Assembly: GCF_044324875.1 (NCBI RefSeq)
Contig: NZ_CP172185.1
From: Escherichia coli
GTDB lineage: Bacteria; Pseudomonadota; Gammaproteobacteria; Enterobacterales; Enterobacteriaceae
Strand: one strand, 5' to 3'
DNA: 64,000 nucleotides
Part shown: piece by piece, positions 495 through 15,242 of the stretch
Numbering within the stretch: position 1 is the stretch's first letter
Layout of the letters: each line of letters opens with the position of its first letter
Translations under genes and position numbers: made by a program
Notes under the pieces: generated by a model
The model's input: the letters and a program-made list of their open reading frames with translations, nothing else
Told to the model about the DNA's origin: nothing
Database searches by the model: none

Positions 495-695
495 AATTCT
501 CTCGTTCTGATGACAGGTCAGATCCGCTTCACCTGATGAAGCGGCCAGGGGAGTGCCCCCACTTTAAGGGCGGGCATTGTAGCGCAATCGTCGGGGTTGG
601 CTCCAGTGTAATTGTGATGAGCTTTTCGATGCCTGGCGTACAATTGACATCAGAATTGAGTATATTTACGACCGTGAATGCTAAGGAGTTAAAAC

Positions 696-1301
696 ATGTG
701 GATGTTAAAGAAGGGAATCACGCTGGCTCTGTTGGTTCTGTTTTCTCTGCCCGCTACTGCCGGTCTTTCGCTGGAGGAGACTGCTCGTAAGGTGATTATC
801 GGCTTTCAGCAAAAAGATGCTCAATTAATCAACTCGTTAATTGATAAAAAAACGGGGTTGTATGTTCTCTTCCAGCGTGGCGCTTCGATGGATGTCGAAA
901 ATTTTAAGTCAATTGATTTTAAAACGCCTGTTCCCGAGTATTTGCTGTGGCCTTCGGCAGGGGAACATATTCCGCGAGATGAAGAGTTTGATAAGAAAAC
1001 TATCCCGGAATTTGACTGTGAACGTGGCTGGAATAAGCACGGATATTTTATTAGCAGCAGCGATACACACCATAAAGTCAGCCGTAATTTGGTCTTCACG
1101 CAGATGTTTGGTTCACCGCGAAACACTATTTCTGATGCGCAGATTGCCGCAGCGCGTCGAATGGAGTACGGGGCCGTGCGTGTGGTCGCTGCGCCAGAAG
1201 GGGGTAGCGATGGACTGGTATTTTATTTAAGTCAACTTTACGGTTATGACCGTGACTGGTATCTGACGGTGGTGGATCAGATTGGTGATTGTGGGGCGTG
1301 A
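696..1301 (+). CDS. hypothetical exported protein (N-terminal signal peptide, two Cys in mature part), function unknown
   Basis: 201-aa ORF. AAGGAG Shine-Dalgarno about 6 nt upstream of ATG 696. N-terminus MWMLKKGITLALLVLFSLPATAGLS has a basic n-region, hydrophobic core and an A-x-G type cleavage site. No family recognised by eye. Confidence 0.55.
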   Translation: MWMLKKGITLALLVLFSLPATAGLSLEETARKVIIGFQQKDAQLINSLIDKKTGLYVLFQRGASMDVENFKSIDFKTPVPEYLLWPSAGEHIPRDEEFDKKTIPEFDCERGWNKHGYFISSSDTHHKVSRNLVFTQMFGSPRNTISDAQIAAARRMEYGAVRVVAAPEGGSDGLVFYLSQLYGYDRDWYLTVVDQIGDCGA

Positions 1302-1331
1302 TAAAGATTTATTCGCCCGCAAGCAGTGATG

Positions 1332-2732
1332 CTATTTAAAAGGTATGTAACCCCTTAATCTGTTGTGAAGTTCCGGATTGCGGGTAAAAAGCGCCTGAAG
1401 TTGCTGACGCTGAAGAGCATTCGGTTGAATGCCCGAAAGATTGAAATTGCGTTGCCATATCGCGAGCTGTTTACCTGCAAATTCTTCAGTTAGCTTGTGT
1501 TGCGATTGCAGAAGAAGAATTAAACCGTCCCATTTGTTCAAGTTATGATACAACCGACAATATGCGCAAGCATGTTTAACTGACGGTGCGTTTTCCAGCA
1601 ACTGACGTATTTCCTCGAACGTGAGCGGAACTCGACACCATACACAGATGTTAACCATAAATCGAAGCCCGGAGGCGTCCGGGTTAGCTAGTGTGGTCAG
1701 AATAATCCCTTTGACACCACCATCAGGATTGGCTTTCGCAAGAATATACATAGCGGCTAATCGCAGTGGGAATACATCCTGTGATAATCCCCATTCAGCC
1801 AGTTTTAAAATATTGGCATCATGAATGGAGTCCAGCCCGTATAAAGCTGCCCGGCGCTGTGAGGGAGTATATTCAGTCGAGGTGACAACATGACGCCAGA
1901 ATTGCGCAACATCCATGACGTCATTAAGCATGTTTTTAGCGCGTAGACGGATCAACATATTGTTATCCAGCAGTAATGCGCTGTACAGAGCCGGAGGAAT
2001 TTCTATAGCTCGGTCAGTAAGGCTAAACAACGTTGCTTGTCGAATACGCGGCCAGCGGTCTTTTAACAGACGAGTTAATACCGCTTCGCTTAACGATAAT
2101 TGTTGACGCAGCCAGTGGGTGACTGCCAGCATTCGTAAACCTTCGTCGGGCTGCTTGAGTATTAAAAGCAGCGAAGATTCATCATTAAAGTAGCCATATT
2201 CAATCAGCGTTTGTAATACTGCGCGGGAAAGTTTTTTATCAGGGCAAGTAAGCCAGCACGTTAATTGCGGGCGGTTATTTTCTTCCAGCAAGAAGCTCAG
2301 TATCTCGTTTACAAATGCACGATGATCGTAACGCTGGCATTGGAGAAGGTTACGTATCATGGGAAGATTAACCGCAAATGCCGCTGCATTCTTATCCTTC
2401 TTTAAATGACGTAACGCTATGGTTGCAGCAAGGCGAACCTCTTTTACCCAGTCATTAGCTGCAAGTAATAATTCTTCTATAGCTGCAACATCCTCTTTTT
2501 GTCCCAGACATTGCACGGCCTTTTCTCGTATATATCCATTGTGGTGATGGGTAAGCTGGCAAAGAACCAGAGTATCGTTGAGATCACAATCATGCGCTAT
2601 ATAATTGCCTGGATCGGCTATCATCGCCTGGAGTTGTTGCTGGATAAGAAATAATTCACAGTCAACAGAATTATTCATTTCGACGTTAAACAAAACCCTG
2701 CGTGTAAATAATGTACGCAATCCTTTGAGCAT
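1332..2732 (-). CDS. hypothetical HEAT/armadillo-like alpha-helical repeat protein with C-terminal paired CxxC motifs, function unknown
   Basis: 466-aa ORF with AGGA-type SD upstream of ATG at 2732. Repeated motifs of the form D/E..V(R/K)..A...L throughout (e.g. NDWVKEVRLAATIALRHL, PDEGLRMLAVTHWL). C-terminus has CVWC and CAYC about 23 residues apart. Locally lower GC than flanking core genes. An internal ATG at 2678 is an alternative start. Confidence 0.6.
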   Translation of the reverse strand: MLKGLRTLFTRRVLFNVEMNNSVDCELFLIQQQLQAMIADPGNYIAHDCDLNDTLVLCQLTHHHNGYIREKAVQCLGQKEDVAAIEELLLAANDWVKEVRLAATIALRHLKKDKNAAAFAVNLPMIRNLLQCQRYDHRAFVNEILSFLLEENNRPQLTCWLTCPDKKLSRAVLQTLIEYGYFNDESSLLLILKQPDEGLRMLAVTHWLRQQLSLSEAVLTRLLKDRWPRIRQATLFSLTDRAIEIPPALYSALLLDNNMLIRLRAKNMLNDVMDVAQFWRHVVTSTEYTPSQRRAALYGLDSIHDANILKLAEWGLSQDVFPLRLAAMYILAKANPDGGVKGIILTTLANPDASGLRFMVNICVWCRVPLTFEEIRQLLENAPSVKHACAYCRLYHNLNKWDGLILLLQSQHKLTEEFAGKQLAIWQRNFNLSGIQPNALQRQQLQALFTRNPELHNRLRGYIPFK

Positions 2733-2854
2733 AATTTTCCTTATCAGTTATGAGGAGAAAACTCATTTCATGATTAATAATTTCTTGAGGGATAGTAACT
2801 CTGTGGTGAGAGAAAATAAAGCCGGACGCCAACAACCCACGCCCGGCATCGTAA

Positions 2855-3187
2855 TTACGTATTGTCTTTCACCGTCTGGCTTGTGCCATTGGCTTTAACG
2901 GAGGCAATTCCGGTTTCACGAGATTGCGCGGTGGCGTACATCTGGCTGGAGCCGATAATTTGATGATTGGCGGCTTTCAGATTGAAATAGAATTTGCCGT
3001 TGCTTGCCGTTTTTTTCTCATAGCGTTCTTCTTGCGGGCTGTTGCTACGCACCGATGCGATGCCCTTTTCCGCAGAGGCTTTTGAGGTATACAGCTCGCT
3101 GGTGAGGATAGTCTCACCATTGCCCGCTTTTAGCACAAACCGGAACTGATTATCACTGCTCTTACTGAGTTCAAACCAACCAGCCAT
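2855..3187 (-). CDS. yegP: YegP (UPF0339/DUF1508 family small protein)
   Basis: ORF track 2855..3226 contains an internal Met giving MAGWFELSKSSDNQFRFVLKAGNGE (110 aa). ATG at 3187 is preceded by AAGGAG. Matches recalled YegP. Confidence 0.8.
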   Translation of the reverse strand: MAGWFELSKSSDNQFRFVLKAGNGETILTSELYTSKASAEKGIASVRSNSPQEERYEKKTASNGKFYFNLKAANHQIIGSSQMYATAQSRETGIASVKANGTSQTVKDNT

Positions 3188-3366
3188 AATGACTCCTTGA
3201 TTGAAATTGCGTATCGAAAACAGCATCTAAAAGAACTGTTTACCGATTAAAGTATGAGCGATTTTCAGGCGGTTGCCAGGGCGGAGAGATAATGTCAGTT
3301 TGCTGACCATGCGCGGGATAATGTTGCCGGATGCGGCGTGAATGCCTTCTCCGGCAGGTAAAAATG

Positions 3367-4089
3367 TTAAACGATGCGGCAGGCGTCGGCTTCCCAGCGG
3401 TAACCGACGCCGTAAACGGCACGGATAAAAGACTGTTCGGCGTCGAGAGATTCCAGCTTGCGACGCAGGTTTTTAATGTGGCTGTCGATGGTGCGGTCGG
3501 TTACTACGCGGTAGTCGTCATAAAGATGATTGAGCAATTGCTCGCGGGAGAACACTTTTCCTGGTTCATGAGAGAGCGTTTTCAACAGACGAAATTCCGC
3601 AGGCGTCAGGTCAAGCATTTTACCGCGCCATGAAGCCTGAAAACGACCTTCGTCGATAATCAACGGGCTTTCGGCATCCTGTTGCTGAAGTTCGCGTTGC
3701 GGTTTGCAACGGCGCAAAATGGTTTTGACGCGCGCTACCACTTCCCGTGGGCTGTACGGTTTGCAGATGTAGTCATCTGCGCCAATTTCCAGCCCCAGCA
3801 GGCGGTCGATCTCTTCGATTTTTGCTGTCACCATCACGATCGGAATGTCAGAAAAACGACGAATCTCCCGGCACAGCGTCAGGCCATCGGTGCCAGGAAG
3901 CATAAGATCCAACAGAATCAGATCCGGTGGTGTCTGGCGTACATATGGCAGTACCTGATCGCCGTGGCTAATCAACGTTGGCGCATAGCTCGCAGCACGC
4001 AGATAATCAATGAGTAACTGCCCCAGCTTCGGTTCATCTTCCACGATCAAAATACGCGGTGTGTTTTCGTCGATTGGTAACTCGGTCAT
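3367..4089 (-). CDS. baeR: OmpR-family response regulator BaeR
   Basis: 240-aa ORF with receiver domain ([13 protein letters not shown]..., [14 protein letters not shown]) and winged-helix C-terminus. Overlaps the upstream kinase gene stop by 4 bp. Confidence 0.95.
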
Positions 4090-5489
4090 ACTTCTCTCTG
4101 TAAATCCCGTTCCAGCGGTAACTCTACTGTAATGCTTACCCCGCCAAAAGGCGAATGGGCAGCAATAATGCGACCATTATGTGCTTCAACAATGTTCAGG
4201 CAAATCGCCAGCCCCAGCCCGGAACCGCCGCTGGCTCGGTTGCGGGAACCTTCGGTGCGATAAAAACGTTCAAACAATTTTTGTAGCTGATCGTCACTGA
4301 CGCCCGGCGCGCTGTCGGCAAAGGTCAGTCGCACCGTTTTGTCGTGCTGCTCGGCAGAGATTTTCAGGCTACCGCCGCTGTCAGTGTAGCGCAGGCTGTT
4401 TTCCAGTAAGTTATTGAATAACTGCATTAAACGGTCGCGATCGCCAAATACGGTAATACTGTCTGGCAGGGAAAATTGCAGTTTCAGGCCACGGCTGGCG
4501 AATCGTTCGCGAAATGCGCCGCCCGCCACTTCCAGCAGTGGGATCAAATCTACCGGTGCTTTTTGATAGGCGAGAGCGCCTTCATCAGACATCGACAACT
4601 GATGGAGATCGTCAACCAGTTTGGTCAGTGTACCGACCTCCGCCTGTAAAGACGCCACCGTCTCCGGCGTGAATTTACGCACGCCATCCTGAATGGCTTC
4701 CAGTTCACCGCGCAGCACCGCTAATGGCGTACGCAGTTCGTGAGAAATATCGGCCATAAAATCGCGCCGCATTTGCTGGTTTTTCTCCAGCGTGCTGGCA
4801 AGCTGGTTGAAGTCTTGCGCCAGTTTGCCCAGTTCATCTTCACTGGTGGGTGTCACGCGGGTAGTGAAATCGCCCGCCGCCAGTTTGTGCGTGCCGTCCA
4901 CCAGCCGTTTGACCGGGGCCAACAGACCACGCGCCAGCAGAAAGGTGGCGAGTGCCGCGAGTAACGTAGCCAGGGCGACAATCAGCCAGCTGGTTTGCCG
5001 CTGTTGTTTATCGAAATTGATATCAGTATTGCGGGTCAGTCGCTCAACAGGGGAGGCAATCACCGCACCCACTTCCGCACCGTTGACCAGAATGGGTCGC
5101 CGTGTACCGTCAGGTGGAATCGGCGCTCGCGGACCAACCAGCACTTTGTTGTTTTGATCGATCACCCAGAACTGAGTACGCCAGCCGTGCGGAGGCATAC
5201 CCGGGCCGGGTTTATCTTCCGAATTATCGTGTTCAAATGAACGCAGGATCTGAAAGACAAAGCGATCGTTGTTGCGCAGGAAGCGCCAGTTGCCATGCTG
5301 CGCATACTGCTCGCCAAGCGCATCACTTAACAGCTGTAATCGCTGTTCATTGCCGTGTTTGATGTAATCAATAAAGCCACGCTCAAAACTGATACGCACC
5401 GCCCAGTGCATACTGATCAGCAAGACAATGCAGGTGGCGAAAATCGCCAGAAACAGTTTGCCGGTAATACCGGGTCGCCAGAACTTCAT
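4086..5489 (-). CDS. baeS: envelope-stress sensor histidine kinase BaeS
   Basis: 467-aa ORF with N-terminal TM segment, HAMP, H-box (SHELRTPL) and HATPase motifs (GGSGLGLAI). Confidence 0.95.
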
Positions 5490-14402: not shown

Positions 14403-14420
14403 GCCAATAAGGGAGAAAAA
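14403..14420 (-). promoter_or_regulatory. candidate BaeR-binding box in the mdtA promoter
   Basis: Minus strand reads TTTTTCTCCCTTATTGGC, a near match to the published BaeR box TTTTTCTCCATDATTGGC as I recall it, about 55-70 bp upstream of the mdtA start. Confidence 0.5.
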
Positions 14421-14727: not shown

Positions 14728-14913
14728 AAGTATGCCTTCACGATAAGATTGTCAATCTGCAGGCTTTGCAGTCTGCGATCCTGCCAGCAAATATTCTTTG
14801 CGAGACGTTACGCAATAATCACACTGGAAACTATTTTATCCGCAAGTCAGCGATAGACTGCATACAGGGCGAAAGGAGGTAAGTCGACGATTTCAGCGGG
14901 ACGCTGAAACGGG

Positions 14914-15055
14914 AAAGCCCCTCCCGAGGAAGGGGCCTTAAATAAGGAAAGGGTCATGATGAAGCTACTCATCATCGTGGTGCTCTTAGTCATAAGCTTC
15001 CCCGCTTACTAAGACTACCAGGGCGGGGGAAACCCCGCTCTACCCTCACTCCTGA
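14914..15055 (-). ncRNA. Sib-type antisense sRNA covering ibs copy 2; ends approximate
   Basis: Placed by position equivalence with copy 1 within repeat unit 2. Confidence 0.45.
14956..15012 (+). CDS. Ibs-family type I toxin (18 aa, MMKLLIIVVLLVISFPAY)
   Basis: Same architecture as copy 1, in repeat unit 2. Confidence 0.75.
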   Translation: MMKLLIIVVLLVISFPAY

Positions 15056-15242
15056 AATTATGCCTTCACGATAAGATTGTCAATCCGCAGGCTTTGCAGT
15101 CTGCGATCCTGCCAGCAAATATTCTTTGCGAGTCGTTACGCAATAATCACAGAGGAAACTATTTTGTTCACGCGTTAGCGATAGACTGCATTCAGGGCGA
15201 AAGGAGGTAAGCCGACGATTTCAGCGGGACGCTGAAACGGGA

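Follow-up and report, generated by a model that had tools for sequence, protein, structure and literature searches.

A basic HEAT-like solenoid protein of Escherichia coli and the RNA-repair gene neighbourhoods of some of its relatives

Using a window of 64,000 nucleotides of Escherichia coli DNA (the whole stretch that was analysed; NCBI RefSeq contig NZ_CP172185.1), we studied a gene on the minus strand, at 1332..2732 including the stop codon, that codes for a HEAT-like repeat protein of 466 amino acids (aa) and is called the HEAT gene below. The gene is real and intact, and its product is a cytoplasmic, basic HEAT-like solenoid; alignments place it in a large, widely scattered and uncharacterised bacterial family. 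From the gene neighbourhoods of relatives we tentatively suggest, as plausible rather than probable, that the family may act in the response to RNA or tRNA damage as an RNA- or enzyme-binding scaffold, and both the binding itself and any function of the E. coli copy are inferred in this way. On this proposal, the ligand of the solenoid would be RNA, such as broken or misfolded tRNA, or else an RNA-repair or tRNA-cleaving enzyme, and the protein would work alongside RtcB-type repair, in a role functionally analogous to that of Ro60/Rsr in rtcBA operons, to which it is not homologous. In E. coli, the gene is a vertically inherited, stand-alone remnant in the slot between baeR/yegP and yegQ (trhP) that is being lost from most lineages. 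That the gene encodes a HEAT-repeat protein was already known from its annotation; the link of the family to RtcB/RtcA, tRNA arrays and HNH endonucleases appears to be undescribed, as far as the searched literature shows.

The neighbourhoods were taken from 88 loci, i.e., 80 metagenomic loci carrying the motif RxNDWV[PAS][QE][VI]R and the loci obtained earlier, in which open reading frames (ORFs) were called and neighbours clustered. The top recurrent neighbour of the family genes in this clustering was the RNA ligase RtcB. In a tblastn census of the same loci, RtcB was found 12 times and RtcA (RNA 3'-phosphate cyclase) three times, and a gene for an HNH endonuclease was directly upstream and co-oriented at 12 of the 88 loci. 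The identification of RtcA (E 3e-111 and 4e-136) and of RtcB is confirmed by NCBIfam, and that of HNH by Pfam (HNH_5, 7e-16). Directly upstream of the HNH-HEAT pair, ARAGORN and Rfam detected co-oriented arrays of 2-10 tRNA genes (loci L029-L032, L036, L093 and L101), and at another locus (L026) two tRNA genes are located just upstream of the HEAT gene itself. The layouts vary, including RtcB-RtcA-HEAT, RtcB-HEAT-RtcA, HNH-HEAT-RtcB and RtcB-tRNAs-HNH-HEAT-band 7, with GC contents from 0.42 to 0.62.

At 50% identity, the 88 HEAT proteins divide into 43 lineages, and usable flanks are available for 31 of them. In six of the 43 lineages, the family gene is co-oriented with the repair genes for RtcB/RtcA, a tRNA array and/or an HNH gene, and the HEAT proteins of different linked lineages are 26-49% identical; an rtcBA-operon setting was found for relatives in at least five lineages and is absent around the window copy. 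By a rough estimate, RtcB makes up about one in thousands of genes and many genomes lack it, so that chance adjacency should be well below 1%. When all sampled loci are compared, the E. coli protein finds its best match outside Enterobacterales in the product of an RtcB-HEAT-RtcA locus (L023), over the full length and with E 8e-33. In the window itself, the adjacency of the HEAT gene to trhP, a gene for tRNA U34 hydroxylation, is suggestive.

Several observations weigh against the proposed role in RNA damage. Identity between the E. coli protein and the RtcB-linked members amounts to only 23-28%, and its function may have diverged. No gene for RtcB, RtcA, HNH or a tRNA lies close to the window copy, there are no tRNA genes in the whole 64-kb window, and none of the Enterobacterales relatives has an RtcB, RtcA, HNH or tRNA-gene neighbour. 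About 80% of the sampled lineages show unrelated or lineage-specific contexts, among them ABC transporters, a sigma-factor-like gene, DUF4132 and Macro/PARG. The adjacency to trhP is confined to Enterobacteriaceae and may be a coincidence. No RNA-binding domain or catalytic motif was detected in the protein, nor any match to Ro/TROVE.

A rival explanation is a generic protein-protein scaffold unrelated to RNA, with the RtcB/tRNA/HNH linkage limited to some subfamilies and the partner of the E. coli protein encoded elsewhere, which we regard as possible, if somewhat unlikely. HEAT-like solenoids are mostly protein binders, and the structures nearest to the HEAT protein are YibA, the alphaRep binders, adaptins and PP2A-A; in addition to the prevalence of lineages with no RNA-repair neighbours, the HEAT gene stands alone in all Enterobacterales loci. 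However, the adjacency to RtcB, RtcA, tRNA arrays and HNH recurs, with shuffled gene order, in six deep lineages, the family is uniformly basic, and the polar and aromatic residues N93, D94, W95, R134, H137, W401 and W426 are kept across phyla, which suggests a common ligand rather than lineage-specific partners.

A fuller version of the RNA-damage proposal, which we consider unlikely as a whole, is that the family is an undescribed component of the RNA-damage response. In this version, a basic solenoid would recognise cleaved or misfolded tRNAs, or the HNH or RtcB enzymes that act on them, and would hand the tRNAs over to RtcB for repair or else protect the tRNA pool against anticodon nucleases; the Ro60-like role would have arisen independently, and the E. 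coli orphan would modulate how well the cell tolerates ribotoxins or translation inhibitors. Should the link prove functional, the family would be a candidate partner for two poorly understood systems, namely, bacterial RtcB repair and supernumerary tRNA arrays, and the natural E. coli carriers would provide an easy genetic system for testing the link to RNA repair.

Some of the sampled loci have further features that we record as separate observations. Just downstream of the HEAT gene, ARAGORN detected a tRNA-like gene whose anticodon loop is aberrant, with an "anticodon" of 2 nt, at four loci (L030, 6453-6526; L031, 5991-6064; L032, 2529-2602; L036, 3211-3283); the copies that were scanned with Rfam (L031 and L036) have a tRNA score of approximately 50-52 bits, and the gene may encode either a tRNA of unusual type or a regulatory RNA that resembles tRNA. 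On one metagenome contig, a family gene (P0041) is co-oriented with genes for Macro and PARG-like proteins (reversal of ADP-ribosylation); at L107, a family gene is downstream of a gene for a 1,235-aa DUF4132 protein; and in Affinibrenneria (L021/L009), a family gene is divergent from a gene for a Schlafen-type helicase (DUF2075).

The fold of the protein was assessed with an AlphaFold2 model built from an alignment of 129 family sequences. The model has a mean predicted local distance difference test score (pLDDT) of 94 and a predicted template modelling score of 0.85; it is wholly helical and contains no beta strands. Based on its DSSP helices, there are about 12 two-helix repeats with a mean period of 31.5 residues (range 28-41). 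The HEAT-like (PBS-type) repeats cover residues 54-428 (1449..2573, minus strand) and agree with matches to HEAT_2, alphaRep and YibA: Pfam HEAT_2 matches the window protein with an E value of 8e-5 and is matched by 114 of the 129 family members, whereas the profile of the 129 members matches the designed alphaRep HEAT-like proteins (E 3e-49) and E. coli YibA (4e-7). The protein thus combines the two features used here to assign a HEAT-like (PBS-type) solenoid, i.e., tandem two-helix repeats and a significant profile match, and its alpha-solenoid repeats are real, well past chance. The original prediction, made by a model from the letters and a list of ORFs, had claimed alpha-solenoid repeats in a 466-aa product, and both the ORF (confirmed by the ORF list and the RefSeq coding sequence) and the repeats hold; each of the four peptides that it quoted is the second helix of a repeat (numbers 2, 5, 6 and 9) and carries the motif D-x3-R-x2-A. 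The repeat length of 35-40 residues that it gave is to be corrected to about 31.

Residues 1-17 (2682..2732, minus strand) form a predicted disordered N-terminus with pLDDT below 50 that aligns poorly among homologues. No transmembrane segment or signal peptide was found, in accordance with the earlier claim; the maximum of the Kyte-Doolittle profile with a 19-residue window is 1.07. No solved structure matches the protein over its full length (template modelling scores of at most 0.3), and it superposes on YibA over 171 of 466 residues. The sole NCBIfam match, to a fumarate reductase model (16 bits), was rejected as spurious.

An exhaustive profile search yielded 2,935 representatives of the family at E<=1e-3 and 1,305 at E<=1e-10; a word-index search retrieved only close relatives. 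The alignments are full-length, with proteins of 430-560 aa, some of which have an N-terminal extension of approximately 100 aa; for the family in general, a length of about 440-540 aa is given. The best 50 matches in AFDB are all uncharacterised and nearly all named merely HEAT-repeat or PBS-lyase proteins, and the source names of the family clusters are all "HEAT repeat domain-containing protein" or hypothetical. Three regions carry the family signatures, all on the minus strand: (i) NDWVKEVR, residues 93-100 (2433..2456), in which N93 and D94 are near-invariant and W95 is invariant in the 129-sequence alignment; (ii) CQRYDH, residues 132-137 (2322..2339), with near-invariant R134 and H137; (iii) a family-specific C-terminal cap, residues 385-466 (1335..1580), with the invariant W401 (LNKWDGLILLL) and the near-invariant W426 (WQRNFN). 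The motif RxNDWV[PAS][QE][VI]R retrieved 494 relatives in metagenomes. The median isoelectric point of the family is 9.2, with 97% of the members above 7.5 and a value of 8.8 for the E. coli protein, and such basic values would fit nucleic-acid binding by the family.

The same conserved residues (D94/W95, R134/H137 and W401/W426) could instead serve an enzyme built on HEAT-like repeats, for example, an AlkD-like glycosylase acting on alkylated nucleic acid or a DOHH-like metalloenzyme, an explanation that we regard as very doubtful. Among such candidates, the AlkD-like glycosylase is not supported: neither PF08713 (DNA_alkylation) nor an AlkD structure gave a significant match.

The C-terminal cysteines were examined separately. 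The original prediction described two Cys pairs, CVWC and CAYC, and read them as a zinc-ribbon-like knuckle. Both pairs exist, as C363-C366 (nt 1635-1646) and C389-C392 (nt 1557-1568), with a spacing of 22 residues, and form a clade-specific quartet at residues 363-392 (1557..1646, minus strand). All four cysteines occur jointly in only 3 of the 129 aligned members, all from the E. coli/Shigella clade (at least 85% identity), and none of them is kept in the 60% and 38% homologues from the same genomic slot. Across the 129 members, columns 363 and 392 are usually L, I, V or F, and columns 366 and 389 are usually R, H, A or K; judging from the alignment, columns 363 and 392 are buried hydrophobic helix positions that were replaced by Cys in this one clade. 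In the AlphaFold2 model, helices 356-365 and 385-397 hold the cysteines, either inside the helix or at its end, and there is no beta-hairpin knuckle. The only partly conserved cysteine is C132 (68 of 129), within the family motif C-x-R-x-x-H. The zinc-ribbon or zinc-knuckle reading was therefore rejected, both on the lack of conservation and on the helical setting; by the standard that the prediction itself had set, it fails because the cysteines are not conserved in homologues. According to the alignment, the CxxC pairs are recent substitutions in one clade, neither a zinc ribbon nor a family feature.

In the model drawn from the original prediction, the HEAT scaffold with its C-terminal CxxC...CxxC metal module would act as an immunity, effector or sensor protein, and this we consider hardly tenable. 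The four cysteines are present in the window protein and in its relatives of at least 85% identity, and in the model they are carried by helices of neighbouring repeats, so that a lineage-specific structural metal site is conceivable. Set against this are the rarity of the quartet, its loss in the syntenic homologues, the hydrophobic core columns 363 and 392, the absence of a beta hairpin, and the PADLOC profile HEAT_CxxC_PD-DEXK (PDLC01150), which the window protein does not match at E<=1. At the same threshold, the only PADLOC match of the window protein is HEAT-ARM_XIII (1.8e-7), a repeat-level similarity, and two distant relatives gave only E values of about 1e-3; membership in a known defence system was rejected on these grounds. 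As a separate observation, the only other aligned sequence with two or more CxxC motifs, the 579-aa family member P0040, has a C-terminal extension (approximately 500-579) with hydrophobic segments and a genuine-looking CPRC...CTHC pair.

The gene order in the window is mdtC, mdtD, baeS, baeR, yegP, the HEAT gene, a convergent 201-aa gene and the start of yegQ/trhP. By mapping blastn break-points against variants of the locus (empty, ParDE, HEAT-only and others), we delimited a variable slot from the upstream region of yegQ/trhP to the yegP terminator (~618..2815, no strand), which in K-12-like strains is approximately 21 bp long. In a set of 5,426 complete E. coli genomes, the HEAT gene gave a match of some kind in 96 and a full-length match in 39; the gene is indeed not core in E. 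coli. Every E. coli copy examined occupies the yegP-yegQ (trhP) slot downstream of baeSR; some copies are disrupted by the insertion sequence IS1, and others have two annotated coding sequences under the match, suggesting a split gene. In the window and in loci including L001-L004 and L015-L017, the slot was seen as empty, with ParDE, with a ParD remnant and HEAT, with HEAT alone, with IS1-disrupted HEAT, with HEAT and the 201-aa gene, and with PcfJ/DUF1266/DUF4034 and the 201-aa gene. In other Enterobacteriaceae, including Phytobacter, homologues of 60%, 41% and 38% identity hold the baeR-HEAT-yegQ position between flanking proteins that are 77-95% identical to those of the window.

Among intact E. 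coli HEAT alleles, the number of synonymous substitutions per synonymous site (dS) is 0.02-0.21, like that of yegP, baeR and baeS. The ratio of nonsynonymous to synonymous rates (dN/dS) is 0.18-0.35 for intact alleles, and 0.18-0.26 for pairs that differ by more than 1%, compared to 0.00-0.09 for yegP, baeR and baeS. These comparisons of alleles point to relaxed but real purifying selection on the HEAT gene. The GC content of the slot is 0.42-0.46 versus 0.51-0.58 for its flanks, yet the gene keeps its synteny across genera and has a flank-like dS. Because of the syntenic homologues across genera, the flank-like dS and dN/dS of about 0.2, the HEAT gene is best described as an old resident, vertically inherited and repeatedly lost, rather than a recent islet import. 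In Escherichia, the baeR/yegP-yegQ slot holds decaying old residents beside mobile cargo, and in E. coli it is a mosaic hot spot. A phage or prophage origin was rejected: the family motif retrieved nothing from IMG/VR, nor was there a match among 50,697 phage records or in PHROG.

The position of the gene raises another explanation, namely, that the solenoid is an orphan immunity protein or antitoxin that neutralises a nuclease toxin, either the upstream HNH of relatives or an incoming interbacterial effector, with the E. coli copy kept in a known hot spot for immunity islets. We regard this as distinctly unlikely. Nuclease inhibitors are typically acidic, whereas the HEAT protein is basic. 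No examined locus has a polymorphic toxin, Rhs, VgrG or PAAR that would place the HEAT gene in an immunity position; in Paraburkholderia the gene abuts an FHA gene on its 5' side rather than following its toxin tip, and RtcB-RtcA-HEAT operons exist that contain no HNH. More generally, no toxin, effector or sensor partner was found beside any of about 100 family loci, and the clustering of neighbours at the 88 loci yielded no recurrent toxin-like cluster. The synteny across genera and the normal dS favour vertical inheritance over islet cargo, and the study of the corresponding Salmonella locus sets the resident genes at its ends apart from the immunity genes (Barretto and Fowler 2020, PMC7400221).

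Two further observations concern the same gene and slot. At L006 (7280-7996; the 60%-identity relative) and L007 (3125-3922; Escherichia sp. MOD1-EC7003), a gene for a secreted 238-aa protein with a weak TPR_12 match lies between baeR and the HEAT gene, and neither locus has a yegP match. At L007, this gene (3125-3922) and the HEAT gene (3870-5329) are each split in two ORFs, consistent with pseudogenes. The 238-aa protein fits the description of t0736 in the Salmonella study, where it is called a TPR protein, and is possibly a homologue of it. In addition, the 43-kb E. coli plasmid NZ_CP083887.1 carries, at 14857-15156 (H104), an unannotated fragment that corresponds to residues 366-465 with 85% identity; therefore, part of the HEAT gene has moved onto a plasmid.

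With respect to the gene model, the ORF list puts the 466-aa ORF on the minus strand, a detail that the original prediction did not give, and the ribosome-binding site is AAGGA, 7 nt before the ATG. RefSeq names the matching coding sequence in E. coli N3 (WP_116836481) "HEAT repeat domain-containing protein", and the window protein is 98.7% identical to it. The region between yegP and the HEAT gene (2733..2833, minus strand) contains a terminator-like yegP hairpin at 2821-2833, followed by the ribosome-binding site of the HEAT gene.

This region bears on yet another explanation, that the HEAT gene belongs to the Bae regulon of the envelope-stress response and shares a transcript with mdtABCD-baeSR-yegP. 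In several genera, the HEAT gene is directly downstream of baeR and co-oriented, in Phytobacter the longest HEAT-containing ORF overlaps the baeR stop codon by 4 nt, and no sigma-70-like promoter of its own was found for the HEAT gene on the minus strand of 2733..2833. We nevertheless consider regulon membership highly improbable: the hairpin behind yegP is immediately upstream of the HEAT gene, no BaeR box was found there, the sole match in the window being at 14403-14420, the protein is cytoplasmic with no envelope-related features, and relatives beyond Enterobacteriaceae are unlinked to baeSR. The match at 14403-14420 (minus strand), unique in the window, differs from the published BaeR box (TTTTTCTCCCTTATTGGC) by one mismatch and, from its position alone, is presumably in the mdtA promoter region. 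As for yegP itself (2855-3226, minus strand), its longest ORF has 123 aa with an ATG at 3226; the RefSeq protein has 110 aa (333 nt) and starts at an internal ATG, which is preceded by a better ribosome-binding site (AAGGAG).

The neighbouring 201-aa gene (696..1301, plus strand) is convergent with the HEAT gene and encodes a secreted hypothetical protein. The Sec-type signal peptide of this protein is clear (MWMLKKGITLALLVLFSLPATA|G), and Pfam, NCBIfam, PHROGs and PADLOC contain nothing that matches it. The gene was found in 304 of the 5,426 E. coli genomes, mostly in B2 strains that have no HEAT gene. Nearly all of these carriers, including UTI89, CFT073 and LF82, have an allele of approximately 88% identity, and at the one such locus examined (ZJ3920), the 201-aa gene is beside PcfJ/DUF1266/DUF4034 genes in the same slot. 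An allele of at least 95% identity is present in only 6 of the 304 genomes and adjoins the HEAT gene in the three such loci examined (the window, N3/L001 and L007). The HEAT gene was also found without the 201-aa gene, and in Klebsiella aerogenes a 55% homologue of the 201-aa protein is encoded alone between baeR and yegQ. An obligate pairing was rejected, as the two genes occur in 304 and 39 genomes, each without the other, and each is solo in other genera; the co-occurrence of the two genes across genomes that the original prediction had put forward as a check thus failed. The 201-aa gene, an independent indel module, and the HEAT gene are independent and are not partners.

It remains to compare the family with known systems. 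YibA (PDB 1oyz) has at most 8 repeats, compared to about 12 in the HEAT protein, and in contrast to HEAT_2/HEAT_PBS, YibA and alphaRep, the HEAT family has its own NDW and RxxH signatures and a non-repeat C-terminal cap with Trp. We found no paper that names the family or its link to RtcB, RtcA, tRNA and HNH; the RNA-repair survey of Burroughs and Aravind (2016, NAR) might list it.

In Salmonella, the slot upstream of yegQ holds the SAIDI-1 islet with orphan immunity genes of type VI secretion and contact-dependent inhibition systems, flanked at the locus ends by resident genes to which no function was assigned and which occur at the same locus in other gamma-proteobacteria (PMC7400221). The same yegQ-upstream slot is variable in E. 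coli (empty, ParDE, PcfJ/DUF1266/DUF4034 or HEAT). However, this HEAT gene does not appear in PMC7400221, and the only HEAT-repeat protein there is SPC1578, which matches PRK09687. No immunity function is indicated for the window HEAT gene by this comparison. We take PRK09687 to be a YibA-type model, and SPC1578 thus appears to belong to a different family from the HEAT protein.

Santamaria-Gomez et al. (2021, PMC8421152) describe long tRNA arrays of cyanobacteria that have HNH and rtcB as conserved neighbours and are induced together with them under translational stress; the role proposed there is to maintain the tRNA pool when toxin RNases attack it. PMC8421152 mentions no HEAT-repeat protein, the arrays beside HEAT genes are shorter (2-10 tRNAs visible on the contigs), and in the E. 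coli window these partners are absent. The likeness lies in the trio of tRNA array, HNH and RtcB, which flanks HEAT-family genes at the seven array loci named above.

A proposed functional parallel is Ro, a HEAT-repeat ring that binds damaged or misfolded RNA and is carried by many rtcBA operons (Das and Shuman 2013, PMC3854526). Homology of the HEAT protein to Ro60 was looked for and not found; unlike Ro60/Rsr, the protein does not show the TROVE HEAT-ring with a C-terminal vWA. Like Ro60/Rsr, the HEAT relatives are alpha-helical HEAT-type repeat proteins coded inside RtcB/RtcA operons in a minority of taxa, where they hold equivalent operon positions, at some loci together with tRNA or tRNA-like genes.

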